Shown here piece after piece: positions 34,619-51,603 of a DNA stretch of 64,000 nucleotides. Every line of letters starts with the position of its first letter. Within the stretch, counting starts at the first letter, position 1. Under the pieces are notes generated by a model. It searched no databases, was not told the origin of the DNA, and worked only from the letters and a program-made list of their open reading frames with translations. The translations under genes were made by a program, and so were the position numbers. The stretch covers positions 4,771 to 68,770 of the forward strand of contig JACQAZ010000015.1 in assembly GCA_016194705.1 (NCBI GenBank), given 5' to 3'. The DNA is from Elusimicrobiota bacterium. GTDB lineage: Bacteria > Elusimicrobiota > Elusimicrobia > UBA1565 > UBA9628.

Positions 34619-37600
34619 TTAGTTCTTCGGCGCCAAAGCCGCGGTCCTGTAGGCCTCGCCTTCCGCCTTCATCTGAGCGCGCCACTGCTGGTCGGCTTGG
34701 TCGAGCTTCTCGAGCTCGCCCAAGAGCTTCTCCGTGTCGCCGGCGTATTTCTTCTCGAGGGCTTCCTTGGCGAGCTCGACGCCGCGCTCATGCCGGGCGT
34801 AGGCCTTGACCCTCCGATTGATCTCGGCGTAGGGAACGTAGCTGAAGATCTCCTGGGCCTGGCGGACGTTGTCGACCGCGAAGATCACGAAGCGCTTCTC
34901 TCGGATCGCCTGGATGATCTCGGGCTTGAGGGTCAGCTGCGAGACGTTCGAACGCGGAATGATGACGAAGGCGCGCTCGCGGATGTTCTCCTTGACCACG
35001 AGCTGCCCGTTGTGGTTGAGCAGGTCGAAAAGGCCCTCGATCTTGTAGTTGACGCCGCCGATGGCCTGGACGTTCTCGCCGAGCTGGTCGTCGGAGCCCG
35101 TCATGGCGCCGTCCTGGCGCAGGGCCAGGCCCGCCATGCTGAGTTCGCCCAGCGAGATCTTGACGCCCGTGGCCGAATCCCCGTCGAGCCCGCCGTAGGT
35201 CTGCTCGAAGGAGTACCGCTTGAGGATGTTCTCCACGAGCTTGCCGTAGGTCTTCTCGAAGTAGCCCTGGACGTTGGCGAAGGCCTTGTCCATGCTGTGG
35301 CCGGTCGATTTCGCCGCCTGATCGTTGGAGACGACGCCGCCGCCTTTCGAGGACTGCGATTCGACGAAGGTCACGCGCGCGGGAGCCCCGAAATCGCCCA
35401 TGACGACGAGGCCGTTGACCTCGTTGTACTTCATCCCCTTCGTGTTGATCACGAAGGTCCTCTTCTCGAGAAGCTCCATGTAGCGCTTTTGGCGCTGGCT
35501 CGTGCTGTCCTTGCGGTCGTCGAGCGCGGTCTGGACGTCCTCGCGCCTGACGTCCTTGCGGCCCGCGTTCTTGGCGACGCGGCTGGCCTCGCGCATGAGG
35601 TTGTAGATGCTGCCGAATTGGGCCGTGAACTTCTCGTTGCTCTCGGCCTCCGATGAGGCGTACTCGAGCACGGCGCCCATGGCGTCGCGGTTGAAGTCCA
35701 TCACCAGGCCCGCGCCCTTGACCGCCATCTTCTTCATGAACTGGACGTAGGCGGAGACGGTGTCGGGGTTGATGTCGAGCTCGTGGACGAACTCGGCCGC
35801 GGCGTTGAAGCCGCGCTGGAAGTCCTCTTCGTAGTGCAAGAGGAGCATCTTGATGTAGGGCGAGCCGATCAGCACGATCTTGGGCCGGTGAGCGACATGA
35901 TAGTTGCCGGTCATCGCGGCGAAGCCGAACATCCCCTGCACCTCGGGAATCTCGGCCTGGCCGGTGCGCACGAGCTCCATGACGGCGTGCCAGGCTCCGG
36001 GCTGGCGCAGGAGATCCATGACGTTCATCACGATCACGTCGGCCTCGAGGATCGAGCCGGTCTTGATCGTGGGACCCCCGGGACTCAGGGTCTTGAGCGC
36101 CACGCCGTTGATGATGCGCGTGTCGCGATTGGGCTCGACGAGACCGAAGAGCTTCTCCAAGGTCGGCTTGTCCTCGAAGACGACGCGCCAGCCCTTCGCG
36201 CCGTTGCTGGCGCGCAGGAGGTTGATGCGGTAGTGATCCAGCGGATCCTGCCTGCCGATCGTGCCCTCGTCGCGGGCTCCGGGCAGGAAAGACTCGAAGT
36301 CGGCGACCGCGTGCTTGAGCAGAGCCTGGGCGTAGCCCATGGCCTTCTTCTCTTCGTCGGTCGGGGCCGGGTCGTTGGCGTGCAGGGCCTTGTGCTCCTT
36401 GTCGAGCTCTTGAGACAAGACGCCGAATTTCTTGATCAACGGGGTGGCGGCCTTGATGACGTCCTTGATGAGGTCCTGCGAGAGCGCGCCCGACTGCTGC
36501 GCGGCCGCGAGTTCCTCGGGGGTCATGGGGACCATTTTGCCGTCGACTTCGTGCGAGATGCCGATGCTGCCGGTCTGCAGCGATCTCTCGTCGATCAGGA
36601 TGCCGTAGCCCCGGACCTTGACCGCCGCGATCTCGGCGAGGACGGCCTGTTGGCGCTGAGCCGCGCTCTTCTCCCAGGCCCTGTGCTCCAGGGTGTCGTG
36701 GCGGTTGGGCATCACGGAGGCGGCGACCTTGCGGCCGATTTGGGAGACCAGCATGCCTGCGATCTCCTGGTACATCTTCTGGTAGGCCACCATCTTCTCG
36801 GCGCGGTTCTCCGAGACCATCGCGCGGAAATCGTCCATGTAGGGCTCGGCCGCGGCCTTCGCCGCGCCCAGCGCCGCGTTCCACTCCTCCATCGTGAAGA
36901 CGCCCTTCTTGACGAGCTCCGCGAGTTCTTCCTCGGAGGCGGCCGTCTTCATAACGAGCTCTTTGCGGATCGCGCCGAATTTCTGGGCCAAGGGGGTGGC
37001 GGCCTTGACGAGCTCGGTGAGGACCTCCTCGGTCAGCTCGCCGGCCGCCTGCTTCTCGGCCATGACCTCCGGGGTCATCGGCACCGCCTTCCCGTCGACC
37101 TCGTGGGTCAGGGCGACGTTGCCCGCCTCATCGATCGAGATGCCGAAGCCTTTGACTTTGACGGCGGCGATCTCGGCGCGGACGGCGTCCAGCCGCGCTT
37201 TGAGCTCGGGGGACGCCTCCGAATAGGTCAAGGCCACTCCGAAATTGAAGTGCTCTCCGTCGCCGGCGTCCTCGGGACGAATCTTGATCCCGAACTTGCC
37301 GACGCGCTGCTGCGAGACCTCCGCCTCGAACTTGGCCTGGCGTTCCGCCGCCGATTTGGCGAGCTCCGCGTTGACGCCGCGCTTGAGCTCCTTGGCTTGG
37401 TCCGAATTGAGGGCCTGGGGGAACGCGGCCTGGTAGGTGCGCACGAATTCCTTGACCGCGCCGGCAAGCCTCGCCGCCGAGCCCGGGTTGAGCTTGAGGA
37501 AGATCGTCTTCTCCGGATCGTTGAAGTTGGTCGCCGCGACGAGGTCGGGCGACGACGGCATCTTCGGGGCGATTTCCGCGAGGATGGCCCTCAGCGCGGT

Positions 37601-38458
37601 CTCGCGCCCGGAGCCGTCCGCTCCCGAAATGTAAAGGTTGTAGTAGGGTCCCGCCATCTCGAGGCCCGCGCGGATCGACTTGAGGGCCTTGTCCTGGCCC
37701 ACGATGTCGACTCCTGAGAGTTCGACCTTGCGCGTGCTGTCGGGCAGCTGGTTGAGGTCGGGGGTGTAGCGGGCCTTGTCCACCGGCACGGCCAAGGACT
37801 CGACGTCCATCAGGGTTGTCTTGGACGCGGGCGGCGAGGCCTTGCCGTTGAGCCGCTTGCGCAGGAAATTGGGGATCAACTTGGAGCCCGAGAGCCGTTC
37901 CCAGACCGTCGCCGCCGCCGCCGGACCGGCGGCGTCGCCGCCGTCGTAGGTCTTTTCGAGAGCCGGTCCCATGCCGTTTCCGGCGGGTCCAGCGGCGACC
38001 GCGGCCGCCATGTTGAGGATGTTTTGCTTGGCCGTACCTTCCGGCAGCACCTCAGCCGCCGCGATCCACTGGGCGGCGTCCTGCTGTCCCGAGAGGGTCG
38101 TGGGCATGGTGATGCCCTTGGCCTGCATTTGGTTGAGGATCTCGATGACGGGGCGGGAGACCAGAGCCTGGCGTCCGGGTGCGTCGGCGCCCTGCGCGGG
38201 AACGGCCTGCGCGGCGGGATCGATCTGGACCAGCGTTCCGGCGTTGTTGAAGGCCGACGGGGCCGGCTCCATCGGGATGGTGATCGTGCCGAGATGCATG
38301 ACTCCCGGTTGGGCGATGTTGAAGACCGGCTGGGCTATCTTGATCCCCGCGGAGGTCTCGTTGAGGTTCGCCGCTAGCGCGGGACTCGGAAGGAAAATCG
38401 AAAGGGAGACGGCGGCGGCGAGAAATCGAGTTGCGGCGGCGCGCATGGAGGGGGTCAT
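34619..38458 (-). CDS. Secreted Lon-like S16-family peptidase (LonC-like, degenerate Walker A) with an internal tandem-duplicated ~85-aa module
   Basis: Start at MTPSM, preceded by AAGGAG with an 8-nt spacer. Signal peptide AATRFLAAAVSLSIFLPSPALA. Degenerate P-loop YISGADGSGRET. Lon protease-domain entry NEVNGLVVMGDFGAPARVTFVE, catalytic-Ser context DGDSATG and Lys context YKIEG. Duplicated segment AEIAAVKV(K/R)G(F/Y)GI…HEVDGK.VPMTPE…KAATPL..KFG. Confidence 0.75.
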   Translation of the reverse strand: MTPSMRAAATRFLAAAVSLSIFLPSPALAANLNETSAGIKIAQPVFNIAQPGVMHLGTITIPMEPAPSAFNNAGTLVQIDPAAQAVPAQGADAPGRQALVSRPVIEILNQMQAKGITMPTTLSGQQDAAQWIAAAEVLPEGTAKQNILNMAAAVAAGPAGNGMGPALEKTYDGGDAAGPAAAATVWERLSGSKLIPNFLRKRLNGKASPPASKTTLMDVESLAVPVDKARYTPDLNQLPDSTRKVELSGVDIVGQDKALKSIRAGLEMAGPYYNLYISGADGSGRETALRAILAEIAPKMPSSPDLVAATNFNDPEKTIFLKLNPGSAARLAGAVKEFVRTYQAAFPQALNSDQAKELKRGVNAELAKSAAERQAKFEAEVSQQRVGKFGIKIRPEDAGDGEHFNFGVALTYSEASPELKARLDAVRAEIAAVKVKGFGISIDEAGNVALTHEVDGKAVPMTPEVMAEKQAAGELTEEVLTELVKAATPLAQKFGAIRKELVMKTAASEEELAELVKKGVFTMEEWNAALGAAKAAAEPYMDDFRAMVSENRAEKMVAYQKMYQEIAGMLVSQIGRKVAASVMPNRHDTLEHRAWEKSAAQRQQAVLAEIAAVKVRGYGILIDERSLQTGSIGISHEVDGKMVPMTPEELAAAQQSGALSQDLIKDVIKAATPLIKKFGVLSQELDKEHKALHANDPAPTDEEKKAMGYAQALLKHAVADFESFLPGARDEGTIGRQDPLDHYRINLLRASNGAKGWRVVFEDKPTLEKLFGLVEPNRDTRIINGVALKTLSPGGPTIKTGSILEADVIVMNVMDLLRQPGAWHAVMELVRTGQAEIPEVQGMFGFAAMTGNYHVAHRPKIVLIGSPYIKMLLLHYEEDFQRGFNAAAEFVHELDINPDTVSAYVQFMKKMAVKGAGLVMDFNRDAMGAVLEYASSEAESNEKFTAQFGSIYNLMREASRVAKNAGRKDVRREDVQTALDDRKDSTSQRQKRYMELLEKRTFVINTKGMKYNEVNGLVVMGDFGAPARVTFVESQSSKGGGVVSNDQAAKSTGHSMDKAFANVQGYFEKTYGKLVENILKRYSFEQTYGGLDGDSATGVKISLGELSMAGLALRQDGAMTGSDDQLGENVQAIGGVNYKIEGLFDLLNHNGQLVVKENIRERAFVIIPRSNVSQLTLKPEIIQAIREKRFVIFAVDNVRQAQEIFSYVPYAEINRRVKAYARHERGVELAKEALEKKYAGDTEKLLGELEKLDQADQQWRAQMKAEGEAYRTAALAPKN
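36421..37200. repeat. Intragenic tandem duplication (two ~230-bp copies at 36421-36650 and 36973-37192)
   Basis: Copy alignment: cgccgaatttct.gg…ggtggcggccttga.gagct… / …ccgtcgac.tcgtg…atgccg.agcc…ttgac.gc.gcgatctcggcg.ggacggc. Encodes the repeated protein module of the Lon-like gene. Confidence 0.6.
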
Positions 38459-38619
38459 GCTCTGTCTCCTTAGATATCGATCGATGTCGTACAAGCTGAG
38501 GGTCCCATTATAAAGGAATGGGGCCTAGCACAAGAGGGCCATATGGGACCGCGATAGGAAGTAAAACGCCCTAGGTCCGGTTAGGACCTAGGGCCTATGA
38601 AAGGGCTGGGAAGTCCGGT

Positions 38620-39815: not shown

Positions 39816-41285
39816 GTGACAGACAAGAGACAACGCCAGCTCGAGGCCGACGCCAAGGACCTGCACCAGTTCGGCTACGCCCAGCAGCTCCTGCGCGACA
39901 TGGGAGGCTTCGCCAACTTCGCGGTCTCCTTCACGATCATCTCGATCCTCACGGGCGCGATCACGCTCTACGGCACGGGCCTCACCATGGGCGGGCCCTT
40001 GGTCAACGGACTGGGCTGGCCGCTCGTGACGGTCTTCACGATGCTCGTGGCCGCGTCTATGGCCGAGATCGCCTCGAAGATCCCGACGGCCGGCGCGATG
40101 TACCACTGGTCCTCTTTGCTCGGCGGGCCCGGCTGGGGCTGGTTCACGGCCTGGTTCAACCTCGTCGGCCAGGTCGCGACGACCGCCGGCATCGACTACG
40201 CGATCGCGCTCTTCATGGCCGACCTGGTGGGCCTGCAGGGCCAGACCGCGCTGCTGACGATCTACGCCTTGCTGCTGGTCAGCCACGGTCTGATCAACCA
40301 CTTCGGCGTCCGCCTCGTGGCCGCCTTCAACGATTTGAGCGTCTGGTACCACATCGCCGTCACCTTGGCTGTGGCTGTCGCCTTCTGGTTCTTCGCGCCG
40401 CGCCGGCCCTTGTCCTTCGCGTTCAAATCCGGCTTCACGACCACGCCGTATCCATACCCCTGGGCGTTTCTGCTGGGCCTTCTCCAGGCGCAATGGACTC
40501 TGACCGGCTACGACGCCTCGGCCCATATCACCGAGGAGACCATGGACCCGCGGCGCAACGCCTCGTGGGGCATGTTCAACGCCGTCTGGATCTCGGGCGT
40601 CTTCGGCTACCTCCTGGTCCTGGCCGTGACCTTGGCCATCCAGGACCTACCGGCCGCGGCCGCCGCGCCCAACCCCTTCATCTTTATCGCGCAGACGGCC
40701 CTGGGTCCCGCCTTCGGCAAGGGCCTGACCTGGGCCATCCTGCCCGCGATGTGGTTCTGCGGCCTGTCCTCGGTCACGACCAACGCGCGGATGATCTTCG
40801 CCTTCTCGCGCGACAAGGGCCTGCCCGGGCACGCGCGATGGGCGACCGTGGACCCGAAGCACCGCTCTCCGGTGGCGGCGGTGTGGCTCGCCGTGGCGCT
40901 GGCCTTCGGCGTCGCCGTCTACGCCAAGGGCTTCACCGTGATCACCTCGCTCTCGGTGATCGGGCTCTACGTCTCCTACGCGATCCCGATCGGGCTCGTC
41001 CTGCGCGCGCGCGCGCGCAAGGGCTGGAGAGACCTCGGGCCCTGGAACCTCGGCTCGTGGGGCGGCCTCGTCAACGGCGTTGCGGTGGCCTGGATCGCCT
41101 TCATCACCGTGCTCTTCGTCGCCCCGCCCAACGAGCTCACGGGCTACACCTTCGCCGGGCTTCTCGTCTTCCTGGCGGTCTATTACTTCGCCCGCGTACG
41201 CGGCAAGTTCAAGGGACCAAAGAAGATCGGCACCGAGGAAGAGCTCATGCGCATGGAGAAGGCCCTCGATAAGTCGTCCGCCTGA
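39816..41285 (+). CDS. Amino-acid/polyamine/organocation (APC) family permease
   Basis: 489 aa with ~12 TM helices and an APC-like layout. Confidence 0.8.
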   Translation: MTDKRQRQLEADAKDLHQFGYAQQLLRDMGGFANFAVSFTIISILTGAITLYGTGLTMGGPLVNGLGWPLVTVFTMLVAASMAEIASKIPTAGAMYHWSSLLGGPGWGWFTAWFNLVGQVATTAGIDYAIALFMADLVGLQGQTALLTIYALLLVSHGLINHFGVRLVAAFNDLSVWYHIAVTLAVAVAFWFFAPRRPLSFAFKSGFTTTPYPYPWAFLLGLLQAQWTLTGYDASAHITEETMDPRRNASWGMFNAVWISGVFGYLLVLAVTLAIQDLPAAAAAPNPFIFIAQTALGPAFGKGLTWAILPAMWFCGLSSVTTNARMIFAFSRDKGLPGHARWATVDPKHRSPVAAVWLAVALAFGVAVYAKGFTVITSLSVIGLYVSYAIPIGLVLRARARKGWRDLGPWNLGSWGGLVNGVAVAWIAFITVLFVAPPNELTGYTFAGLLVFLAVYYFARVRGKFKGPKKIGTEEELMRMEKALDKSSA

Positions 41286-41286
41286 C

Positions 41287-42063
41287 ATGAGCCTCGAACC
41301 GACGTTTCCGGAGCGGCGCGTCCTGCTGCGCTGCGCCCTTTCGTTTGTCGGCAAGTCCAGCCGCCTGATCCGCAGCAAGCTCGCCGCGGGCCCGCGCGTG
41401 CGCCTCAAGGACGACGGCAGCCCGGTCACCGACGCGGACTTGGCCGCGGAGCGCCTCCTGCGCCGTCTGATCGTTAGGCGCTTCCCTGATCACGGCATCC
41501 AGGGCGAGGAATTCCCCCCGGTCAGACCCCGGGCCGAATTCCAATGGTTCGTCGACCCGATCGACGGGACAATGAGCTTCACGCGCGAGATCCCGCTCTT
41601 CGGCACGATCGTCGCCCTGCATCATCTGGGAAGACCGCTCCTCGGCGTCATCGACCATCCCGCTCTGCAAGAGACAACGAGCGCGGCCGCGGGCCTGGGG
41701 GCCTTCCGCAACGGACGCAGGATCACCGTCTCCTCGGGTAACGCCTTGAAGAACGAGCTCGTCGCCGTCTGCTATCGCGACCAATTCCTGCGCTGCCGCA
41801 GGCAGGCCGCTTTCGACCGCCTGATGAGGTCGCACCCGAACGTGCGGACCTACGGAGACTGCTTCGGCCACATTTTGGCCGCCCGAGGCGCGGTCGGCGC
41901 GATGGTCGACGTCGACATCAATCCCTGGGACCTCGCCGCGACTCAAGTGATCATCGAAGAGGCCGGCGGCAAGTACGTAGTCCTCGCGCGGCGCGGCAAG
42001 CGCCGCGACATCCTCTTCGGCAAGCCCAAGGTCGTCGATCGGCTGCTGCCGATCCTCAAATGA
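41287..42063 (+). CDS. Inositol-monophosphatase-family phosphatase
   Basis: IMPase motif WFVDPIDGT plus downstream Asp motifs. Start MSLEPT is 2 nt after the permease stop. Confidence 0.75.
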   Translation: MSLEPTFPERRVLLRCALSFVGKSSRLIRSKLAAGPRVRLKDDGSPVTDADLAAERLLRRLIVRRFPDHGIQGEEFPPVRPRAEFQWFVDPIDGTMSFTREIPLFGTIVALHHLGRPLLGVIDHPALQETTSAAAGLGAFRNGRRITVSSGNALKNELVAVCYRDQFLRCRRQAAFDRLMRSHPNVRTYGDCFGHILAARGAVGAMVDVDINPWDLAATQVIIEEAGGKYVVLARRGKRRDILFGKPKVVDRLLPILK

Positions 42064-42959
42064 GGAACCCTCGGCTCGACGCCGCCATCGCCGATGTGCC
42101 CGGCTGGAGCAAGGAGCGGCTGAGGATCAACGTTCTCAAGGGCGGGCTCACGAACCGTAATTTCAAGATCGAGGCCGAGGACGGCGCATTCGTCCTCAAG
42201 CTGGACGGCAAGGAGACCGCGGTGCTGGGCATCGATCGGAAGAACGAGAACACCTGCGCCTCGATCGCCGCCGGCCTCGGCGTGGGTCCCCAGGTCTACC
42301 ATTACTTGCCGGCGGAACGCTCATTCGTCACCCGCTTCATCGAGGGCGAGCCCGTCTCGCCCCAGGCGGCCTCTCAGCCGGCCATGCTCAAGCGGATCGT
42401 GGCGTCTATCAAACGCGTGCACGAGGGCCCGGCCTTCCCGGGCCGGTTTTCGCCCTTCGAGACGGTCCGGCACTACCGCCGCGCCGCGTGGCTAAGGCGT
42501 GCGACTCCTCCCGAGGCGATCGACCTTGGGCTCATCGCGATGGGACGCATCGAGCAGATCCTGGGGCGGCGTCAAAACCCCAAGCCCTGCCACAACGACC
42601 TATTGGCGAGCAACTTCATCGACGACGGAAAGACCATCCGCATCGTCGACTGGGAGTACGCGGCGATGGGCGACCCCCTCTTCGATCTTGGGAATTTCGC
42701 CGTCAACCAGCAGCTCTCGGAGGACCGCTGCCGCCTGCTGCTGAAAGCCTATTTCGCCGAAGTCCGACCCGATGCCTTGGCGCGCCTTCAGCTTTATCGT
42801 CTCATGTCGGACCTGCGCGAAGCCCTCTGGGGTTTTCTCCAGTCGAGACTCTCCGACATAAAGTTCGATTTCGAGGACTACGGGATCAATCACCTCGACC
42901 GGTTCCTGCGCGGAGCGTCCGGCCCGCGCTTCGAGCGCTGGCTCAAGGAGGCGGCGTGA
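42060..42959 (+). CDS. Choline/ethanolamine-kinase / APH-family phosphotransferase
   Basis: Brenner-like motif HNDLLASNFI and the D-x-E motif IVDWEYA. 4-nt overlaps on both sides. Confidence 0.75.
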   Translation: MRNPRLDAAIADVPGWSKERLRINVLKGGLTNRNFKIEAEDGAFVLKLDGKETAVLGIDRKNENTCASIAAGLGVGPQVYHYLPAERSFVTRFIEGEPVSPQAASQPAMLKRIVASIKRVHEGPAFPGRFSPFETVRHYRRAAWLRRATPPEAIDLGLIAMGRIEQILGRRQNPKPCHNDLLASNFIDDGKTIRIVDWEYAAMGDPLFDLGNFAVNQQLSEDRCRLLLKAYFAEVRPDALARLQLYRLMSDLREALWGFLQSRLSDIKFDFEDYGINHLDRFLRGASGPRFERWLKEAA

Positions 42960-45394
42960 GCCGCAAGGCCCGCGTCGTCATCATCGGCTCCGGCATCGCG
43001 GGCTCGTCCATCGCCTATCACCTGGCCGAGCTCGGCTGGAAGGACATACTCGTGCTCGAGCAGGGCGAGCCGGTCTCGGGCACGACCTCGCACGCGCCGG
43101 GCCTGGTCGGGCAGCTGCGCTCATCCGCGTCGCTGACCAAGATGCTCATGTACAGCGTCGCGCTCTACAAGAAGCTGCGCTACAGAAGCGAGCCCGGCTT
43201 CTTCCCGGTCGGCAGCCTGAGGCTCGCCTCCTCGCACGAGCGCCTCTTGGAGCTCAAGCGCCAGGAGAGCTTCGCCAAGACCGTCGGTCTCGAGGCGCGG
43301 CTGCTGAGCGCCGCGGAGGCGGCGAAGATGTTCCCGTTGATGGAATCCGAAGGCGTTCACGGGGCGCTCTACCTGCCCGGCGACGGCTCGGCGCGCGCGG
43401 TCATACTCGCCCAAGCGCTCGCGCAGGCGGCCAAGGACAAGGGCGTCGAGTTCCTCCCCTACGCCAAAGTCGTTTCGTTCGATATTCGCGACGGCCGCGT
43501 CGTGGGACTCAGCACGCCGCAGGAGGACATCCTCTGCGACCTGGTCGTCGCGGCCTCGGGGATCTGGTCCGCGCAGCTCGGCCGCCTGGCGGGCGTGCGC
43601 ATTCCCTTGATCCCGATGCAGCACCAGTACGCCGCCACGGCCCCCCTGCCCGAGCTCAAGGCCTTGGGCGCCCACACCCTGCCGAACCTCCGCGATCCCG
43701 ACAACTTGGTCTATTTCCGCCAGGACGGCGAGGGCCTGGTGCTCGGCGGCTACGAGCGGGACCCCGCCCCGTTCTATCACGAACGCGTCCCGGAAGGAGC
43801 CAACCCCACGGTCCTCGACTATACGCCCGCGCGCTTCGAGAGCCTCTGGGAGGGCTGCCTCAAGAGAGTGCCGCTGCTCAAGGGCGCCTCGCTCGTCAAA
43901 AAGGTCAACGGTCTCGAGTCCTTCACGCCCGACGGGGAGTTCATCCTCGGCCCGGCGCCGGAGCTCAAGGGCTTCTGGGCCGCCTGCGGGTTCTGCGCCC
44001 ACGGCGTCTCGGGCTCCGGCGGGGTGGGCAAGATGCTCGCCGAATGGATCGTCGAGGGCGAGCCGACTCTCGATCTGTGGCATATGGACATCAGACGCTT
44101 CGGAGGCTACGTCTCCAAGACGGGCTACATCGCCGCCCGCGCCTGCGAGGTCTACGCGACGTATTACGACATCGCCTATCCCAACCGCGAGAAAGAGAGC
44201 CAGCGCAAGCTGCGCTTGAGCCCCATGTACGGCCAGCTGTCCGCGCTGGACTGCGTCTTCGGCGAGAAGTCGGGCTGGGAGCGGCCCAACTGGTTCGCCT
44301 CGAACGAGGCGCGCGCCGACGAGGGGACCTCTCCGGTGCCGCGCGGCTGGGCGGCGAAGAACTGGTCGCCCGCCATCGGCGCGGAGCACAAGGCCTGCCG
44401 CGAGGCCGTCGCCCTGTTCGACGAGTCCTCGTTCTCGAAGCTCGAGGTCTCCGGAGCGGGCGCGCTGGCCTTCCTCCAGCGCCTGACCGACAACCAGATG
44501 GACAAGCCCGAGGGCTCGGTCACCTACACCCAGATGCTCAACGAGCGCGGCGGCATCGAGTGCGACCTGACCGTGACGAGGCTGGGGAAGAATCGGTTCC
44601 GGCTGATTACGGGCACGGCCTTCGGCGTGCACGACACGGCGTGGCTGCTCAAGCACAAGCCGGCCGACGGCTCGGTCGGCGTCAAGGACCTGACCGACGA
44701 GCTCTGCTGCCTTGGGGTCTGGGGACCGCGGGCGCGGGAACTCCTCCAAGGGGTGAGCCCCGACGACGTCTCGAACGAGGGCTTCCCTTATCTGAGCGCT
44801 CGCGAGATCAAGGCCGCGGGGCTCGCGGTGTTCGCCGTGCGCGTGACCTACGTCGGCGAGCTCGGCTGGGAGCTCTACGCGCCGGCCAAGGAAGGCGGAA
44901 AGCTCTGGCAAGCGCTTTGGGAGGCGGGCAATCCTTTGGGCGCCGCCGCGGCGGGCTACCGCGCGATCGATTCCCTGCGCCTCGAGAAAGGCTACCGCTA
45001 CTGGAGCGCCGACATCCACTCGGAGTATAACCCGTACGAGGCCGGTCTGGGCTTCTGCGTAAAGCTCGACAAGGGCGACTTCATCGGCAAGCCCGCATTG
45101 GAGACATTCAAGGCGCGGGGCCTGACGCGCAAGCTGTGCTGCCTGACCCTAGACGACCCCGCCGCCGTGGCCTTGGGCGGGGAGGCGATCGCGCATGCGG
45201 GCCGCGTCGTCGGGCGCGTGACGAGCGCCGGCTACGGCTACACGCTGGGCAAGAGCATCGCTTACGGCTATCTGCCGATCGCGCACACCGAGCCCGGAAC
45301 CAAGCTCGAAGTCGAGCTCTTCGGCGAGAGGATTCCGGCCGTCGTGTGCAAAGAGCCGCTTTACGACCCGCGCAACGCGCGCATCAAGTCCTGA
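42956..45394 (+). CDS. Dimethylglycine oxidase/dehydrogenase-like FAD oxidoreductase fused to a GcvT (aminomethyltransferase) folate-binding domain
   Basis: GTG start. FAD motif VVIIGSGIAGSSIAYHL. C-terminal GcvT-like region (…VTYVGELGWELY…). 813 aa. Confidence 0.8.
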   Translation: MSRKARVVIIGSGIAGSSIAYHLAELGWKDILVLEQGEPVSGTTSHAPGLVGQLRSSASLTKMLMYSVALYKKLRYRSEPGFFPVGSLRLASSHERLLELKRQESFAKTVGLEARLLSAAEAAKMFPLMESEGVHGALYLPGDGSARAVILAQALAQAAKDKGVEFLPYAKVVSFDIRDGRVVGLSTPQEDILCDLVVAASGIWSAQLGRLAGVRIPLIPMQHQYAATAPLPELKALGAHTLPNLRDPDNLVYFRQDGEGLVLGGYERDPAPFYHERVPEGANPTVLDYTPARFESLWEGCLKRVPLLKGASLVKKVNGLESFTPDGEFILGPAPELKGFWAACGFCAHGVSGSGGVGKMLAEWIVEGEPTLDLWHMDIRRFGGYVSKTGYIAARACEVYATYYDIAYPNREKESQRKLRLSPMYGQLSALDCVFGEKSGWERPNWFASNEARADEGTSPVPRGWAAKNWSPAIGAEHKACREAVALFDESSFSKLEVSGAGALAFLQRLTDNQMDKPEGSVTYTQMLNERGGIECDLTVTRLGKNRFRLITGTAFGVHDTAWLLKHKPADGSVGVKDLTDELCCLGVWGPRARELLQGVSPDDVSNEGFPYLSAREIKAAGLAVFAVRVTYVGELGWELYAPAKEGGKLWQALWEAGNPLGAAAAGYRAIDSLRLEKGYRYWSADIHSEYNPYEAGLGFCVKLDKGDFIGKPALETFKARGLTRKLCCLTLDDPAAVALGGEAIAHAGRVVGRVTSAGYGYTLGKSIAYGYLPIAHTEPGTKLEVELFGERIPAVVCKEPLYDPRNARIKS

Positions 45395-45695
45395 GAACCG
45401 TCCGTCCCTTGAGCACCGCCGCGGTCCCCTTCTCGATCGTCTTGAGCCGCTTCTCCAGCTCCTGAAGCCGTTTCCCCTTTCCCCTATTTGCCTCAAACGC
45501 GAGGAGGATGTCCGCCGTCGCTTCCAGAGCGTCCTGCATGGCCGAGAATCGCCCTGGCTCGACGAGGACGGCCACCGGTCTTCCGTGCTTCTCGAGGTTG
45601 ACCGGGGTCTCGCGCAGCTGCGCGATGATCTGGTCCATGCGCGTGCGCAGCTCCGAGACGGCGGCGAAGGCCGCGGGGTGACGGACGATCTTCAT
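45384..45695 (-). CDS. Phd/YefM-family antitoxin (no cognate toxin adjacent)
   Basis: 103 aa. N-terminus MKIVRH…VSELRTRMDQIIAQL…HGRPVAVLVEP is typical of YefM/Phd. The 3' end overlaps the convergent oxidase gene by 11 nt. Confidence 0.65.
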   Translation of the reverse strand: MKIVRHPAAFAAVSELRTRMDQIIAQLRETPVNLEKHGRPVAVLVEPGRFSAMQDALEATADILLAFEANRGKGKRLQELEKRLKTIEKGTAAVLKGRTVLRT

Positions 45696-45754: not shown

Positions 45755-46117
45755 ATTATATCCCCACGAGACGGTCCCTCAAGATGAGAGGTAAAATAGA
45801 GGAAAATGAGACCAAAAAAAGACCATCGCAAGGCGGAGAGGAGAAATGGAAAAGGACCGGAGAATCCCGGTCCGTATTCCGCCGGAAAAAAGACCCAGTC
45901 CGGCTTCCGGAACGGCCGGCCGGGATTCAGCGGACGAAGAGATCGAAACTCCGGCCGCGCTGGAGACGAAAGCCGGATCAAACAAGGGATCGGCAAAAAG
46001 ACCATGAAAGAGCCCCCGCGCGCCGGAAGGCCCGGCTGCGCCCGGGACGGGACCGCTGTCAGGGCTGCGAGGCCCTGAATTCATCCGGAGCAGCCCGCTT
46101 TCCGGGTCTCCGCGAGG

Positions 46118-48346
46118 CTAGCGCCGCTTCTTGCCGCCGGAGCCGATCTTCAACTTGAAGGTGAAGGTCGAGCCCATCGGCTGGGCCGTGGCCAGCGAAT
46201 GCAGGAGGTCCAGCGCGACGCCTTGGCCGATCCAGGCCAGGAACAGGTAAAAATCCGGGCTGATGCCCGCGAAGGCCCCGTAGAAATGGTAAGCCGTCAT
46301 GGTCAGCGCCGCGGAGAGTCCCGCTCCGATGGTCTGCAGCCAATACCCCGTCTTGCCGTTGGAATTCATCCCGCGGAAGAAGTTGAAATGGTGCGCCAGG
46401 AAGAAGAAGGTCGCCACCGGAAAGTTCAGCGCGAATCCCGCGTAGGCGATGCCCGCTCCGACGAGACCCGGCACGAAATACGCCGTCGAGGCCGCCGTGC
46501 CCCCGGCCGTGTCCGCGAAGTAGGCGGCCATCAAGAGCCCAGCGAAGATCATCGCGACCGGGTGCGCCGTGAGCAGGCCCGCGGCGATCACGGCCGCGAT
46601 CGAACCTAGAGCCGCGAGCATTCCCAACGGACTGATCCCGCGCGCCTTCTTGGTCTTGAGGAACAGCCCCGCGACCCAGCCCACGCCGTAGAGCGCCGAG
46701 GCCAAAATGAAAGAACCTGTCAAGACTGCCAAGACAGGATGCGCCTGGGCATAAGGCGTCGCCTGGTCGACGAAGGACGCCAGGGACGCAGTCGAGGGCA
46801 GCGCAAACACGGCCAATGCAGGAGCCCTCGACCTCGCCGCAGACGGCGTCCTTCCCTCGAGCCGCTTGAGCGAGTCGATCGCGGCCGCGTTGGGGCCCTT
46901 GAGCCCCGCGAGCAGGTCCGCCGCGAACTTGTTGTGCATCCAGACGCTCAACTGGTCGAGGTGGGTGTCCATGCCGTGGAAGTCCGCGCCGTTGCCGACG
47001 AGGAGGTTGTACTTCTCTGCCCAGACCAGATACTTGGCCGCCCGCTCGTCGGCGGCCCGCTTGCCGTTGCCGGAGGTCGCGTGGCTCGGGCGGTAGACCT
47101 CGATGCCGTCCATGCCCGATTCAAGCATGGCCTCTACATTCTCGTCCTTCTGCGCGTCGGTCTTACCGCGCACGGTGTACGGGTGGTTGAGGAAGGCCTT
47201 GCCGCCGGCCGCGTGGATGGCCTCGACGACTTCGTCGGGCGTCGGGTCGGAGGGCACGCCGGGCGTGTTGAGGATGTCGCCTTGCAGGTAAGTCTTGAAG
47301 GCCTCGTCGACCTCGCTGATCAGGCCGCGTTTGAGCAAGGCGCGGGCGATGTGGGGAATCTCGATGGTCCCCCCCGCATCATGCTGGGAGAAGGCCTTGA
47401 CCTCGTCGATGGTCATCGAGATGCCCTTCTCTTTGAACTCGTCGAGCGCGTTGAGGTTGTCGATGATGCCTTGAGCCTTCTGGTGGCGCATGATGCGCAC
47501 GCGCTCCAAGAGGGCGACGAGCTTGGCGTTGGTGACGTCGACGTCGATGGCGTTGATGTGCGCGCCGCCCTTGGCGGTCATCTCGACGCCGGTGTGGAAC
47601 TCGATGGGGTCGGCCGGGTTGGCCGCGTTGAGCTCTTGAACCTTCTTCCAGGCGCGCAGGACGCCGGCGGAGGTGTCGTGGTCGGTCAGAGCGATCACGC
47701 GCGCGCCCTTCTTGTAGGCCGCCTCGATGACTGCCTCCGGGGTCATCGTCCCGTCGGAGTAGATGCTGTGCAGATGCAAAGTGATCCGCTCGGTCCAATC
47801 CCGTGGATTGCCTTCCCGCGCGGAGGGCACGTACTGCGCCAGCCGTCCCGGGATGCGGAAGGGAGCCAGGGCCAGCGGGGCCGGGATGCCGTCATGATGG
47901 TAGCTCTCGAAATGGGCGTAGGCCTGGTCCTCGTCGTCGTGATGGATGTGGACCACCGAGAGCTTCGGCGTCCCGTCGTAGATCTCGCTGACGGCCTCGC
48001 TGCCCAGGATGGAATCCTCGATCCCGATCGCGGGCAGGTTCAGCTCATCGGCCTGCTCGAGCCCCGCGCGCGCCTGAGGGCCTTGCCGACGCGGCGCTGG
48101 AGGCGCGAGGGCGCCTTCCCCCGGCGTCAAAGACGCTTCGGGCGCGGCGGGAACGGCTGGGATCGCGGCTTCAACGAGAGGGCTCAGCCCGGGCTGGACG
48201 GGGACCTGGGGCAGACCCTTGCCGGCTTCGACGGGCGCGACGAGAGGCTTGACTTCGCCCAGAGGCTTGACGACGTCTCCGCCGAGGGCGGGAACGCTCA
48301 GGAGGATCGAAAGCCAGAGGAAGGGGAGGCCAGATCTGTTTATCAT
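46118..48346 (-). CDS. PHP-domain phosphoesterase with signal peptide and C-terminal polytopic membrane domain
   Basis: Signal peptide MINRSGLPFLWLSILLSVPALG. PHP motifs HLHSIYSDG and ALTDHDTSAG. The C-terminal ~260 aa contains multiple TM helices. Confidence 0.7.
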   Translation of the reverse strand: MINRSGLPFLWLSILLSVPALGGDVVKPLGEVKPLVAPVEAGKGLPQVPVQPGLSPLVEAAIPAVPAAPEASLTPGEGALAPPAPRRQGPQARAGLEQADELNLPAIGIEDSILGSEAVSEIYDGTPKLSVVHIHHDDEDQAYAHFESYHHDGIPAPLALAPFRIPGRLAQYVPSAREGNPRDWTERITLHLHSIYSDGTMTPEAVIEAAYKKGARVIALTDHDTSAGVLRAWKKVQELNAANPADPIEFHTGVEMTAKGGAHINAIDVDVTNAKLVALLERVRIMRHQKAQGIIDNLNALDEFKEKGISMTIDEVKAFSQHDAGGTIEIPHIARALLKRGLISEVDEAFKTYLQGDILNTPGVPSDPTPDEVVEAIHAAGGKAFLNHPYTVRGKTDAQKDENVEAMLESGMDGIEVYRPSHATSGNGKRAADERAAKYLVWAEKYNLLVGNGADFHGMDTHLDQLSVWMHNKFAADLLAGLKGPNAAAIDSLKRLEGRTPSAARSRAPALAVFALPSTASLASFVDQATPYAQAHPVLAVLTGSFILASALYGVGWVAGLFLKTKKARGISPLGMLAALGSIAAVIAAGLLTAHPVAMIFAGLLMAAYFADTAGGTAASTAYFVPGLVGAGIAYAGFALNFPVATFFFLAHHFNFFRGMNSNGKTGYWLQTIGAGLSAALTMTAYHFYGAFAGISPDFYLFLAWIGQGVALDLLHSLATAQPMGSTFTFKLKIGSGGKKRR

Positions 48347-48711: not shown

Positions 48712-50385
48712 ATGCCCGCGCTCCTCTGCTCCCTGCTGGCCGCCTCGCTCCTCGCGGCTGAACCCGAACTCATCCTCGCTCACGGTCGCGTCTTCATCGC
48801 CCCGGGACGCTACGCCCAGGCCGTGGCGGTCGTCTCCAATCGCATCGAGTCGGTCGGCAGCGACGCGGCGGTGCTGGCGCTCAAAGGGCCGGCGACCCGC
48901 GTCGTCGATCTCAGGGGCCGCGCCGTGACGCCGGGTTTTCACGACAGCCACACCCATTTCCTCCGAGGCGCGCTCTCACTGACCCAGGTCGACCTCACCG
49001 GCGCCTCGGACATCCAGGAGATTCAGCGCAGGCTCGCCGATTACGCCGTCAAGAATGCGACGGCCGTCTGGATCATCGGGCGCGGCTGGGACCAGACCTC
49101 GTGGGCGCCTGGCGCCTATCCGACCCGCGCCGACATCGACGCCGTGGTTTCGACGAGGCCGGTCGCGCTGGCCGACGCGGACGGGCGCGCGCTGTGGCTC
49201 AATACCGAGGGGCTCAAGCGCGCAAGAATCACCTCGCGCACGCCCAGGTTCAACAGCGGGCAGTTCATCAAGGACGACAAGGGCGAACTCACGGGCCTCC
49301 TGCTGGACGAGGCCACCTCCCCGGCCATCGCCGCCATACCGGCCCCGTCGCGCGCCCAAAAGCTCGACGCCCTGCGCAGGGCACTGGCCTTGGCGCGAGA
49401 ATCCGGCGTAACGGCCGTCGAGTCTCTGCAGGGCCCGTTCGACGCTTTGCCATCCGAGCAGCTCGACCTGTGGAAAGAGCTCTACAAGAACGGCGACGCC
49501 ACGCTGCGCTATTTCCTCTACGGACGCCTCGAGGATCCCGGCGGGTTCTCCAAGCTCAGGAAAACGGTGCGCGACATCCCGAGGGATCGGCTCGATCTCA
49601 TCGGGGTCAAGGGCCTCGTCGACGGGACCTTCAAAGACCGCACGGCGGCGCTGCTGCAGCCCTACTTCGACGCCAATGCCAGCGGCGCGCTCAAGCACCA
49701 GACCTTCTCGCTCAACTCGATGATCCGCCGCGCCCACCAGGACGGCCTCCAAGTGGCGCTGCACTGCGTCGGCGACCGCGCGGTGCGGGCCGCGCTCGAC
49801 GCCTGCCAGAAATCTCAGGAGAGGGCGCGCCAGGAGGAACTGGTCCTGCCGCCCTACCCGTGCAAGCTCGAGCACGTCGAAGACGTCGACGCGAAGGACC
49901 TGCCGCGTTTCGCCGGCCTCCACGCTGTCGCCTCGATGCAGCCGAGCCGCATGATCTTCGATGATGAAGAACGAAACTACTACCCCAATAGGCTCGGCTC
50001 CCGCGTGCAGCGCAGCTTCGCCTGGAAGAGCCTGGAGGACGCCGGGGCGCTGGTGAGCTTCGGCACGGACTGGCCCGCGCTGCCGCTGGCGCCGCGCGTC
50101 GGGCTGTTCGCCGCCGCGACGAGGCGGCACCGCAACGGCAAGCCGGAGGGCGGCTGGATTCCCGCGGAAAAAATCTCGCTCGAGTCGGCCGTCGCGCACT
50201 ACACGGCCGACCCGGCCCGGGCCATCGGCCGAGACGATGCGATGGGCCGGGTCAAGCCGGGACAGCTTGCCGATCTCGTCGTCTTCGACCGGGATCTCTT
50301 CTCGACCGCGGGCTTGGATTTGCTCAAGGTGCAGGTCGACATGACGATCTTCGACGGCAAGATCGTCTACGAGCGAAAGCCCTAA
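48712..50385 (+). CDS. Amidohydrolase-family metal-dependent hydrolase (Amidohydro_3-like)
   Basis: Signal peptide. Metal-binding motifs GFHDSHTHF and …ALHCVGD…. Confidence 0.75.
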   Translation: MPALLCSLLAASLLAAEPELILAHGRVFIAPGRYAQAVAVVSNRIESVGSDAAVLALKGPATRVVDLRGRAVTPGFHDSHTHFLRGALSLTQVDLTGASDIQEIQRRLADYAVKNATAVWIIGRGWDQTSWAPGAYPTRADIDAVVSTRPVALADADGRALWLNTEGLKRARITSRTPRFNSGQFIKDDKGELTGLLLDEATSPAIAAIPAPSRAQKLDALRRALALARESGVTAVESLQGPFDALPSEQLDLWKELYKNGDATLRYFLYGRLEDPGGFSKLRKTVRDIPRDRLDLIGVKGLVDGTFKDRTAALLQPYFDANASGALKHQTFSLNSMIRRAHQDGLQVALHCVGDRAVRAALDACQKSQERARQEELVLPPYPCKLEHVEDVDAKDLPRFAGLHAVASMQPSRMIFDDEERNYYPNRLGSRVQRSFAWKSLEDAGALVSFGTDWPALPLAPRVGLFAAATRRHRNGKPEGGWIPAEKISLESAVAHYTADPARAIGRDDAMGRVKPGQLADLVVFDRDLFSTAGLDLLKVQVDMTIFDGKIVYERKP

Positions 50386-51449
50386 CGGCGTCTCTGGCGC
50401 CGTTCGTCTCTCGGCTGCTGACGCTGCTGCTGCTGTTGGCGCCGCTGTCCTTGCTGCTCCTCTCGCTGACGCTGTCTCTCCCGCCCAAATTCTTCGCGCC
50501 GCTTCGCTTTCTCCTGTTGACGCTGCTGACGCCCCTCGCTCTCACCTTGCTCCTGCGGGGGCCGCAGATGCTGGCGGCGCTTCGGGGCCGGGCCCCCCTC
50601 TTGGTTCTGAAGGCGCTTTTGGCGGCCGCGCCGCAGGAGGTTTTGCCTCGCCCGCAAATGCCCGTATTTTCTGCCCTGCATCTGCCGCCTCACGCCCTTG
50701 AGGTGGCCGCCTCGCACCGTCTGTTTGCTCCGCAAGCGCTGCCGCCATTCTCGGCGCAGCTTCGCGTCGCGCCGAGTCCAGTTCTTCGAGACCTCGCCCG
50801 CCCGATGCCGGACGAACTCGAACCTCCGCCGGCTTCCCGCGAAATGGCGCAGAGTCGCGGGCTGCCCCAGCGCCTTGTCCTTGTGCACCTCGAGCTCCTG
50901 GCCTGGCCCCAGCTGCGCGGACTCCTTTCCCCCGACGGCCGTGACGGCGACCTGGCCCTCGTCGAAGACGCCGACGCGGGCCGGCTGGTCGTCGCCCTCC
51001 TGGGAGACCGCCAGTTCCGTGCCGCGCACGGCGGCCACGGCTGTGGGGGTGTGGAACTCCATGCTCTGTCCGTCGAGCAAATGCTTGATCTTGGCCAGGA
51101 TCGAGCCGATGCCCACATGAAACTCGGTATGCTCCGGGGCCAGCGAATTGACGATGAAATCCGAGTTGGGCGAGATCGAGATCACGGATTCGCCGTCGAG
51201 CGTGAACTCCGCCGTGCCGTCCTCGCCGGTGCGGATCATGTCGCCGTCCTCGATGGTCGCGTCCGCCTCGGCCGGGATGAACTCGCCCTCCTGATGGTCG
51301 TGCAGGTGCAGGTAGACCGTACCCTCGACCGAGGTGAGGCGCGCCTCGCGGTCCGCGTCTTCGGGCTGGTCCTGCGTAGAGGCCGACAGAGAACCCGCCG
51401 CGATGAGCGCGGACACGGCGGCGGCCGTCCAACGGCGTTTGGTTCCCAT
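50382..51449 (-). CDS. FecR-domain protein with extreme Arg/Gln-rich C-terminal tail
   Basis: Start at MGTKRRWTAAAVSALIAAGSL (signal anchor). FecR-like β-rich region. The last ~150 aa are R/Q/E low complexity encoded by CAG/CGS repeats. Confidence 0.6.
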   Translation of the reverse strand: MGTKRRWTAAAVSALIAAGSLSASTQDQPEDADREARLTSVEGTVYLHLHDHQEGEFIPAEADATIEDGDMIRTGEDGTAEFTLDGESVISISPNSDFIVNSLAPEHTEFHVGIGSILAKIKHLLDGQSMEFHTPTAVAAVRGTELAVSQEGDDQPARVGVFDEGQVAVTAVGGKESAQLGPGQELEVHKDKALGQPATLRHFAGSRRRFEFVRHRAGEVSKNWTRRDAKLRREWRQRLRSKQTVRGGHLKGVRRQMQGRKYGHLRARQNLLRRGRQKRLQNQEGGPAPKRRQHLRPPQEQGESEGRQQRQQEKAKRREEFGRERQRQREEQQGQRRQQQQQRQQPRDERRQRRR

Positions 51450-51603
51450 GGCGAGCTTCCCGGAGTATAACAAGTCTTTGTTACATTCACAAGTAGGCGG
51501 CCGTCGGTCCCATGGTCCCACTGCGGAGTAGTCCCAATGTGTCCCCCTTGTGGCCCTATGGACCTATAGGGTCTAGACCCAGCGGACGCTATAATGGAAC
51601 GCA

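Follow-up and report, generated by a model that had tools for sequence, protein, structure and literature searches.

A putative exported, membrane-anchored phosphoesterase of the RNase AM/TrpH type in an Elusimicrobiota bacterium

A PHP phosphoesterase with predicted export and a membrane anchor

Within a 64,000-nucleotide window of an Elusimicrobiota bacterium (assembly GCA_016194705.1, contig JACQAZ010000015.1, positions 4,771 to 68,770 of the forward strand), we examined a reverse-strand gene encoding a 742-amino-acid (aa) protein with a PHP domain. We estimate a probability of roughly 0.6 that this protein is an exported, membrane-anchored phosphoesterase of the RNase AM/TrpH type that acts on nucleotide-type phosphoesters in the periplasm. 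The first-pass annotation of this DNA had suggested an extracytoplasmic PHP phosphoesterase tethered to the membrane, and signal-like N-termini throughout the clade of close homologs, relatives that appear soluble or type I, and a bias in the distribution of charged residues all point the same way. The sequence data show the identity of the domain, the conservation of its metal ligands, the clade-wide signal peptides, the variable anchor and the charge bias; that the protein is in fact exported and cleaved, which metals it binds, what it hydrolyses and what role it plays are inferred.

In the proposed mechanism, a Sec signal peptide would export the N-terminal part of the protein to the periplasm, where the folded catalytic domain (about aa 157-500) would reside, Elusimicrobiota being diderm bacteria. 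The C-terminal helices would hold the protein on the inner membrane with a basic tail in the cytoplasm, and the intact three-metal centre would hydrolyse a phosphoester. Candidate substrates are short oligonucleotides, nucleoside 3'-phosphates or bisphosphates, and cyclic phosphates released by secreted nucleases, and the biological role may be nucleoside or phosphate scavenging. The gene and its parts are as follows.

46118..48346 (-): whole gene, PHP phosphoesterase, 742 codons plus stop, from the list of open reading frames (ORFs)
48278..48346 (-): predicted Sec-type signal peptide, aa 1-23, MINRSGLPFLWLSILLSVPALGG, with the hydrophobic peak at aa 8-26
48017..48277 (-): Pro/Ala-rich linker, aa 24-110, poorly conserved; from composition, alignment and model
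47879..48016 (-): (F/Y)DG motif (aa 122-124) and His-rich beta-hairpin, aa 111-156; from alignment and the AlphaFold2 (AF2) model
47789..47878 (-): clade-specific N-terminal extension of the catalytic domain, aa 157-186 (IPxRLxxxxPSA..NPxDWT); from alignment
46937..47788 (-): TrpH/RNase AM-type PHP domain, aa 187-470; from Pfam, NCBIfam, PDB sequence matches and Foldseek
47249..47539 (-): insertion (nucleotide-binding) lobe, aa 270-366; from alignment to 7ug9 and 2yb1
46847..46936 (-): long conserved helix following the PHP domain, aa 471-500 (LKxANxxAIxxLERL); from alignment and model
46652..46846 (-): juxtamembrane segment (aa 501-536, poorly conserved) and first transmembrane helix, TM1 (aa 537-565); from alignment to homolog P0003
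46187..46651 (-): lineage-specific block of about six helices, TM2-TM7, aa 566-720, missing from P0003
46121..46186 (-): basic, predicted cytoplasmic tail, aa 721-742, ending KLKIGSGGKKRR, with 6 K/R and no acidic residue

The ORF begins with an ATG that is its first possible start codon, and because no start codon lies between it and the preceding in-frame stop, a longer in-frame start is impossible. The G+C content at third codon positions (GC3) lies between 0.77 and 1.00 in every segment of the gene, which fits real coding sequence in this frame, and is 0.86 both for the membrane part as a whole and for the six-helix block (TM2-TM7). The PHP motifs noticed in the first reading lie at aa 191-199 (HLHSIYSDG) and aa 221-224 (TDHD), and each element of the architecture described there, namely a signal peptide, a Pro/Ala-rich linker, a PHP domain and a multi-helix C-terminus, could be located in the protein. 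An identical public entry, P0001, is named merely 'MAG: PHP domain-containing protein [Elusimicrobia bacterium]'.

Fold and active site of the catalytic domain

The Pfam PHP model (PF02811) matched aa 190-263 with 43.2 bits against a gathering cut-off of 26.4, and a TrpH-type domain was matched over aa 187-463 by NCBIfam models and PDB sequences; aa 24-186 gave no Pfam match. The best-scoring NCBIfam models were those for RNase Rnm (NF047791) and 3',5'-nucleoside bisphosphate phosphatase (NF041577), and the best solved structures by sequence were 3e0f, 9etk, 7ug9 and 2yb1, at identities of 25-28%. An AF2 model computed from a 23-sequence family alignment had a predicted local distance difference test score (pLDDT) above 90 for approximately aa 160-500. 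When this model was compared with the PDB by Foldseek, the top matches were 3o0f/3e0f, 9etk (RNase AM of V. cholerae) and 2yb1 (Cv1693), with target template-modelling scores of 0.76-0.81 and E-values from 4e-18 to 8e-16. The modelled domain has two lobes, a PHP barrel and, inserted into it, a helical lobe of the nucleotide-binding kind.

All nine metal ligands are present (H191, H193, D198, H223, E255, H263, H388, D455 and H457) and are invariant in 35 aligned sequences, comprising 25 from the clade, 5 intermediate and 5 classical. Their roles are known from the structure and mutants of RNase AM (PMC9410882), to whose residues we mapped those of the query through alignment to 7ug9 and 2yb1. 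The long helix that follows the domain, whose motif is conserved in the clade and the intermediates, is predicted at residues 471-497 of the model with pLDDT above 86. By these alignments, the predicted catalytic machinery is intact and the substrate pocket is diverged.

Ahead of the PHP domain, the clade-specific extension has P174, S175 and W184 near-invariant (numbering in the alignment is one lower), and the model includes it in the folded domain, with pLDDT exceeding 90 from about aa 160 onwards. The D and G of the preceding (F/Y)DG motif are invariant or almost so in the alignment. The His-rich hairpin itself (aa 131-152, VVHIHHDDEDQAYAHFESYHHD) appears in the model as two short strands at residues 131-134 and 144-147. 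Other homologs have CAHCxHxDDDH at this position, and P0021 and P0022 do not have the element; it is a candidate metal-binding element that looks swappable.

Distribution of the clade

An exhaustive phmmer search with aa 112-500 of the query against 1.84 billion cluster representatives returned 8,805 proteins at E ≤ 0.001, in which three groups were distinguished.

Close clade: 11 representatives, E below 1e-84, 302-742 aa
Intermediate (P0033-P0037): 5 representatives, E 1e-53 to 1e-46, 383-642 aa
Classical TrpH: several thousand representatives, E from about 1e-32, about 280 aa

Every clade or intermediate member with a named source comes from Elusimicrobiota. A pattern scan covered 185,579 species, each represented by a single genome, up to a ceiling of 600 pattern matches; of the 80 loci listed, 2 belong to the clade, both from Elusimicrobiota.

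The nucleotide-binding lobe and the probable substrate

The insertion lobe contains R287, K290, E329, I330, R335 and F350. Arg107 and Arg99 of the E. coli enzyme and Cv1693, respectively, correspond to R287 of the query, R110/R102 to K290, R141/R134 to I330, and F161/F154 to F350. R287 is invariant in the clade, position 290 is K, R or H in 23 of 25 members, and position 350 is F or Y in all 25; the Phe equivalent to F350 is strictly conserved in RNase AM, where it stacks on AMP (PMC11528712). Because the nucleotide lobe, two of the three basic phosphate-binding residues and the base-stacking aromatic are retained, a nucleotide-type substrate is the one we favour. The equivalent of I330 is Arg in the intermediate and classical sequences, and five residues lining the insertion lobe and barrel rim (E329, R335, Y390, T391 and R419) are invariant in the clade only. 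With the third phosphate-binding Arg replaced by a hydrophobic residue and these clade-own residues gained, the clade probably has a substrate or end-group specificity other than that of RNase AM, which requires a 5'-phosphate.

Several observations weigh against a periplasmic enzyme for nucleotide-type phosphoesters. The three-arginine pocket is incomplete, with a hydrophobic residue at the position of I330 in 24 of 25 clade members, and neither equivalog cut-off was reached, the scores being 114.8 bits against 375 for RNase Rnm (NF047791) and 113.4 bits against 400 for the bisphosphate phosphatase (NF041577). No functional partner is conserved across the clade neighbourhoods, and a staphylococcal-nuclease neighbour of a PHP homolog (see below) was found in one lineage only. 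As to location, the intermediate P0033 carries RRARPWGR on the ectodomain side of its single helix (within aa 470-505); this protein also has a signal-like N-terminus despite its reversed charge pattern.

Since the 5'-phosphate pocket is altered, the substrate may not be a nucleotide at all. The protein, at the same periplasmic-face location, would then act on an envelope or environmental phosphoester, for instance phospholipid or lipid A head groups, phosphorylated glycans, glycerophosphodiesters or organophosphate diesters, with the tether keeping it near a membrane-bound substrate. Most clade members are indeed membrane-anchored, but four homologs have no membrane anchor whatsoever. The lost pocket Arg and the five clade-own residues would suit a different ligand, and the gene for P0015 follows a putative CUT1-type ATP-binding cassette (ABC) transporter operon resembling ugpBAEC; on the other side stand the retained base-stacking aromatic and the two basic phosphate ligands. 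Sb-PDE is a secreted PHP enzyme acting on non-nucleotide diesters, whereas the characterised TrpH-type enzymes all act on ribose-phosphate substrates. Taken together, we regard a non-nucleotide substrate as rather unlikely, and a nucleotide-type phosphoester as the better candidate.

Export and topology of the protein

We assessed export and topology by sequence rules and by comparison with homologs. The N-terminus of the query (MINRSGLPFLWLSILLSVPALG, followed by GD) opens with a basic n-region, continues with a hydrophobic core of 15 residues and has small residues at -3/-1; signal cleavage is predicted after ALG or ALGG. At the aligned position the homologs have AFA/AD, ALA/VD, LRA/AD and ARA/VE sites, where the slash marks the predicted cut, and the first ~12 mature residues (DVVKPLGEVKPL) are conserved among the closest homologs. 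A signal-peptide-like N-terminus, basic and then hydrophobic, was found in 25 of 25 clade members, mostly with A-x-A-type sites (P0008 looks N-terminally truncated), and in 4 of 5 intermediate relatives. In the classical TrpH group, the HxH motif begins within the first 40 residues in all 130 of 130 representatives, which leaves no room for a signal peptide. Tat export was considered as a family feature and rejected, an RR pair being present in P0003, P0009 and P0014 and absent from the query and most homologs, as was a lipoprotein reading, the query N-terminus having no lipobox Cys. The linker behind the signal peptide consists of P or A at 31 of its 87 residues (16 P, 15 A), has pLDDT values of 30-40 and differs in length across the alignment.

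The number of C-terminal helices varies widely among the homologs.

No C-terminal helix: P0009, P0011, P0014, P0024
One: P0002-P0004, P0012, P0013, P0015, P0016, P0021-P0023, P0031
Two: P0006-P0008, P0010, P0017-P0019
Several: P0005, P0020, query

Proteins of the first group would be soluble exported proteins, as they have no C-terminal helix, and other homologs have a single helix with a basic tail after it, the classic type I arrangement; both the anchor-free exported homologs and those of type I can be reconciled only with a PHP domain outside the cytoplasm. For the query, a seven-helix model with the ectodomain outside places 12 K/R in the inside loops and tail, a count that takes in K564 and R658, both at helix ends, and leaves the outside loops free of K/R. 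Family-wide, the 15 residues before the first helix contain 18 K+R, against 44 in the 15 residues after it. The PHP domain is thus placed, by comparison, probably outside the cytoplasm.

The opposite orientation would give a cytoplasmic PHP domain with an RNase AM-like function (5'-3' RNA trimming or pAp hydrolysis), if the N-terminal hydrophobic stretch were an N-out anchor or untranslated and aa 508-526 formed an extra helix. This is in keeping with all characterised relatives being cytoplasmic and with a TrmL-like tRNA methyltransferase as a conserved downstream neighbour in several genomes. The segment aa 508-526 is weakly hydrophobic and is preceded by R499, R505 and R507, but it is poorly conserved and has pLDDT below 50. 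There is no alternative ATG before M201, itself inside the PHP domain, and the basic n-region and small -3/-1 residues predict N-in insertion and cleavage. Homologs in which the signal peptide is the sole hydrophobic segment cannot retain the domain in the cytoplasm, and the type I homolog P0003 has a basic tail after its single helix. An inside location of the PHP domain is accordingly graded as unlikely on the topology comparison, and this reading as a whole, RNase AM-like function included, as very improbable.

The C-terminal membrane part

By hydropathy and the AF2 model, the C-terminal hydrophobic stretch (aa 537-719, ~183 aa) contains about seven helices and is followed by a 23-aa tail, so that the multi-helix domain of the first reading stands while its size of ~260 aa does not. 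TM1 aligns with the sole helix of P0003, AQAHPVLAWLSGAFALALALYGLAWVVG (AQAHPVLA...), and is followed in the query by KTKKAR. The ending of P0003, KLKFGSGGKKRR, is near-identical to the query tail (KLK.GSGGKKRR), with nothing between TM1 and the tail. Because P0003 consists here of TM1 and the same tail, the query carries an in-frame block of ~155 residues with six helices. As aligned, TM1 is the putative ancestral anchor, and the extra six helices may be a lineage-specific enlargement of a simple anchor; the block could have originated by insertion in the query lineage or by deletion in P0003.

Searches with this region found no informative relative. For aa 531-742, the best Pfam match was only PsbJ (E = 0.071), and the PDB sequence search gave no match up to E = 10; for the membrane part, NCBIfam gave only ProP (E = 0.35), and phmmer within the family found, beyond its own entry (1e-152), only TM1 of P0003. 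A pattern scan of metagenome contigs turned up nothing related to the six-helix block, whose pLDDT is mostly below 60. Searches of the large database with aa 501-742 and aa 560-742 returned nothing, a weak negative because the query's own entry P0001 was also missed. Internal helix duplication was rejected, as TM1 against the rest scores 32 (through a shared AHPV) and shuffled sequences average 29.4 (standard deviation 5.1). No NCBIfam model for PEP-CTERM, LPXTG, GlyGly-CTERM or similar sorting signals matched, and the single-helix homologs share no common motif ahead of the helix. P0005 and P0020 have helices that cannot be aligned with those of the query.

On this evidence, the membrane part is best described as a variable anchor, apparently expanded in the query lineage, and not as a conserved functional module. 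The first-pass suggestion that the domain might be transporter-like gained nothing from the Pfam and PDB searches and fits poorly with a helix number running from none to several in homologs. That the seven-helix region is instead a functional module (a channel or permease for the hydrolysis product, or a sensor) and the fusion the point of the gene would agree with its length (aa 537-719) in an open frame of coding-like GC3 (0.86), its richness in small-xxx-small helix-packing motifs and the likewise multi-helix P0005 and P0020, yet we judge it highly unlikely given the lack of any Pfam, PDB or metagenome relative and of any local phmmer match beyond TM1 of P0003, a helix number from 0 to about 7 in the family with the helices of P0005/P0020 not alignable, and the low AF2 confidence over the helices.

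Gene neighbourhood

The features and genes flanking the PHP gene are given below.

48712-50385 (+): Amidohydro_3 gene, 557 aa, hydrophobic and signal-like at the N-terminus, divergent from the PHP gene
45854..45873 (-): terminator-like hairpin GGACCGGGATTCTCCGGTCC, then a T-run; pattern scan, consensus match only
45384-45695 (-): Phd/YefM-family antitoxin gene, 103 aa, neighbour of the PHP gene

Promoter-like sites for the next gene lie past the hairpin at 45782-45702 (pattern match only). This order of a terminator-like hairpin and then promoter-like sites of the next gene suggests that the PHP gene is monocistronic. The Rfam scan of the window identified one tRNA only, distant from the PHP gene. 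No toxin partner could be recognised for the Phd/YefM antitoxin gene, which at its 3' end overlaps the terminus of a convergent FAD-oxidoreductase/GcvT gene.

The Amidohydro_3, PHP and Phd/YefM arrangement recurs in the two closest genomes (L002 and L088). In L002 a major facilitator superfamily (MFS) gene is inserted between the Amidohydro_3 and PHP genes, and L088 has the plain pairing. In more distant homologs, genes for a TrmL-like methyltransferase, a hypothetical protein and a Lon-like protease come after the PHP gene; in the query lineage, inserted genes part the PHP gene from this set. A 1291-aa LonB-like AAA protease gene is found in the window at 34619-38494 (-), and the Lon-like gene is nearer downstream of the PHP gene in L006 and farther downstream in L002. 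All of these recurrent neighbours (TrmL-like, Lon-like, Amidohydro_3 and Phd/YefM) look like lineage synteny. Genomic context across relatives, which the first-pass annotation had named as a check, gave no guide to function, with no partner conserved across the clade.

In Elusimicrobia GWA2_66_18, the gene for P0014 is tail-to-tail with a signal-peptide-bearing gene with two staphylococcal-nuclease domains.

L003 9553-10683 (-) = L008 7037-8221 (-): tandem staphylococcal-nuclease gene by P0014

The two could be a functional pairing. A bolder possibility, which we regard as doubtful, is that the clade is a new extracytoplasmic nano-oligonuclease/3'-phosphatase class derived from RNase AM, which would accept the 5'-OH/3'-phosphate products of secreted staphylococcal-type nucleases through a remodelled pocket (Arg to hydrophobic, Glu329) in two-step scavenging of nucleic acids, the six orphan helices inserted in-frame being a newly arisen membrane domain.

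Other genes were noted in passing. The P0010 gene cluster contains a signal-peptide-bearing EEP-family gene (single lineage). In the window, an ORF at 42488-45394 (+) encodes a dimethylglycine/sarcosine-dehydrogenase-like fusion (DAO + FAO_M + GCV_T + GCV_T_C), and since the first of its Pfam domains sits at aa 162, translation probably starts ~160 codons downstream of 42488. A gene at 50382-51521 (-) encodes a FecR-domain protein with a long, highly charged Arg/Gln/Glu-rich C-terminal tail (…RQQRQQEKAKRREEFGRERQRQREEQQGQRRQQQQQRQQ…), and one of the inositol-monophosphatase family lies at 41080-42063 (+); this family includes CysQ, the usual cytoplasmic pAp phosphatase.

Relation to known enzymes and significance

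The closest characterised enzymes are RNase AM/YciV/TrpH and Cv1693 (COG0613), with which the query has in common the two-lobed fold, in which a PHP (beta/alpha)7 barrel carries an insertion lobe, the complete nine-ligand set of the three-metal site, two of three basic 5'-phosphate residues and the base-stacking Phe/Tyr. These enzymes are cytoplasmic, lack a signal peptide and are about 280-300 aa long, whereas the query, at 742 aa, adds about 160 N-terminal residues, a predicted signal peptide and a C-terminal anchor; its third phosphate-binding Arg is replaced by a hydrophobic residue, and its clade has invariant residues of its own. The predicted catalysis is thus like that of RNase AM/Cv1693, and the protein is not an equivalog of them by curated score, pocket residue, or location and architecture. 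To our knowledge, RNase AM/TrpH enzymes are known only as cytoplasmic, with roles in RNA-end processing and in clearance of pAp (3'-phosphoadenosine 5'-phosphate).

The statement in the first-pass annotation that PHP domains are normally cytoplasmic holds for classical TrpH and not for every PHP protein, as Sb-PDE of Sphingobium sp. TCM1 is a secreted PHP phosphodiesterase whose signal cleavage was confirmed by N-terminal protein sequencing (PMC5460133). By its published description, Sb-PDE shares with the query a PHP phosphoesterase domain and a Sec signal peptide, but belongs to another PHP subgroup; it is soluble, 441 aa long, has no membrane anchor and acts on haloalkyl phosphate diesters (PMC5460133). 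The related CehA/McbA model (NF038032) scored 48.2 bits against a cut-off of 80 and matched aa 190-272 only, the N-terminal motif. Given the secreted Sb-PDE, export of the PHP fold is not unprecedented.

By analogy, the proposed role, extracytoplasmic hydrolysis of nucleotide phosphoesters after secreted nucleases, would be the same as that of the calcineurin-like enzymes CpdB and UshA, which are soluble periplasmic proteins with an unrelated fold and metal site. In model bacteria, periplasmic scavenging of nucleotides and phosphate is carried out by CpdB, UshA and PhoA, unrelated to the PHP enzymes. Our literature search found no report of an exported TrpH-type enzyme, and this, together with the missed curated NCBIfam cut-offs, bears out the earlier impression that the architecture is not that of a characterised family. 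We take the protein for a rare and uncharacterised form of a known enzyme, and not for a new kind of system.

The automatic names '3',5'-nucleoside bisphosphate phosphatase' and 'TrpH' given to members of this clade are likely misleading as to both location and substrate. With between zero and about seven helices, and with a six-helix in-frame block for which no relatives were found, the anchor offers a modest natural case of the gain or loss of membrane segments. If the proposed reading is true, an exported, tethered clade would extend the RNase AM/TrpH fold to periplasmic scavenging of nucleotides and phosphate, and would provide a concrete enzyme for a poorly studied and mostly uncultured phylum.

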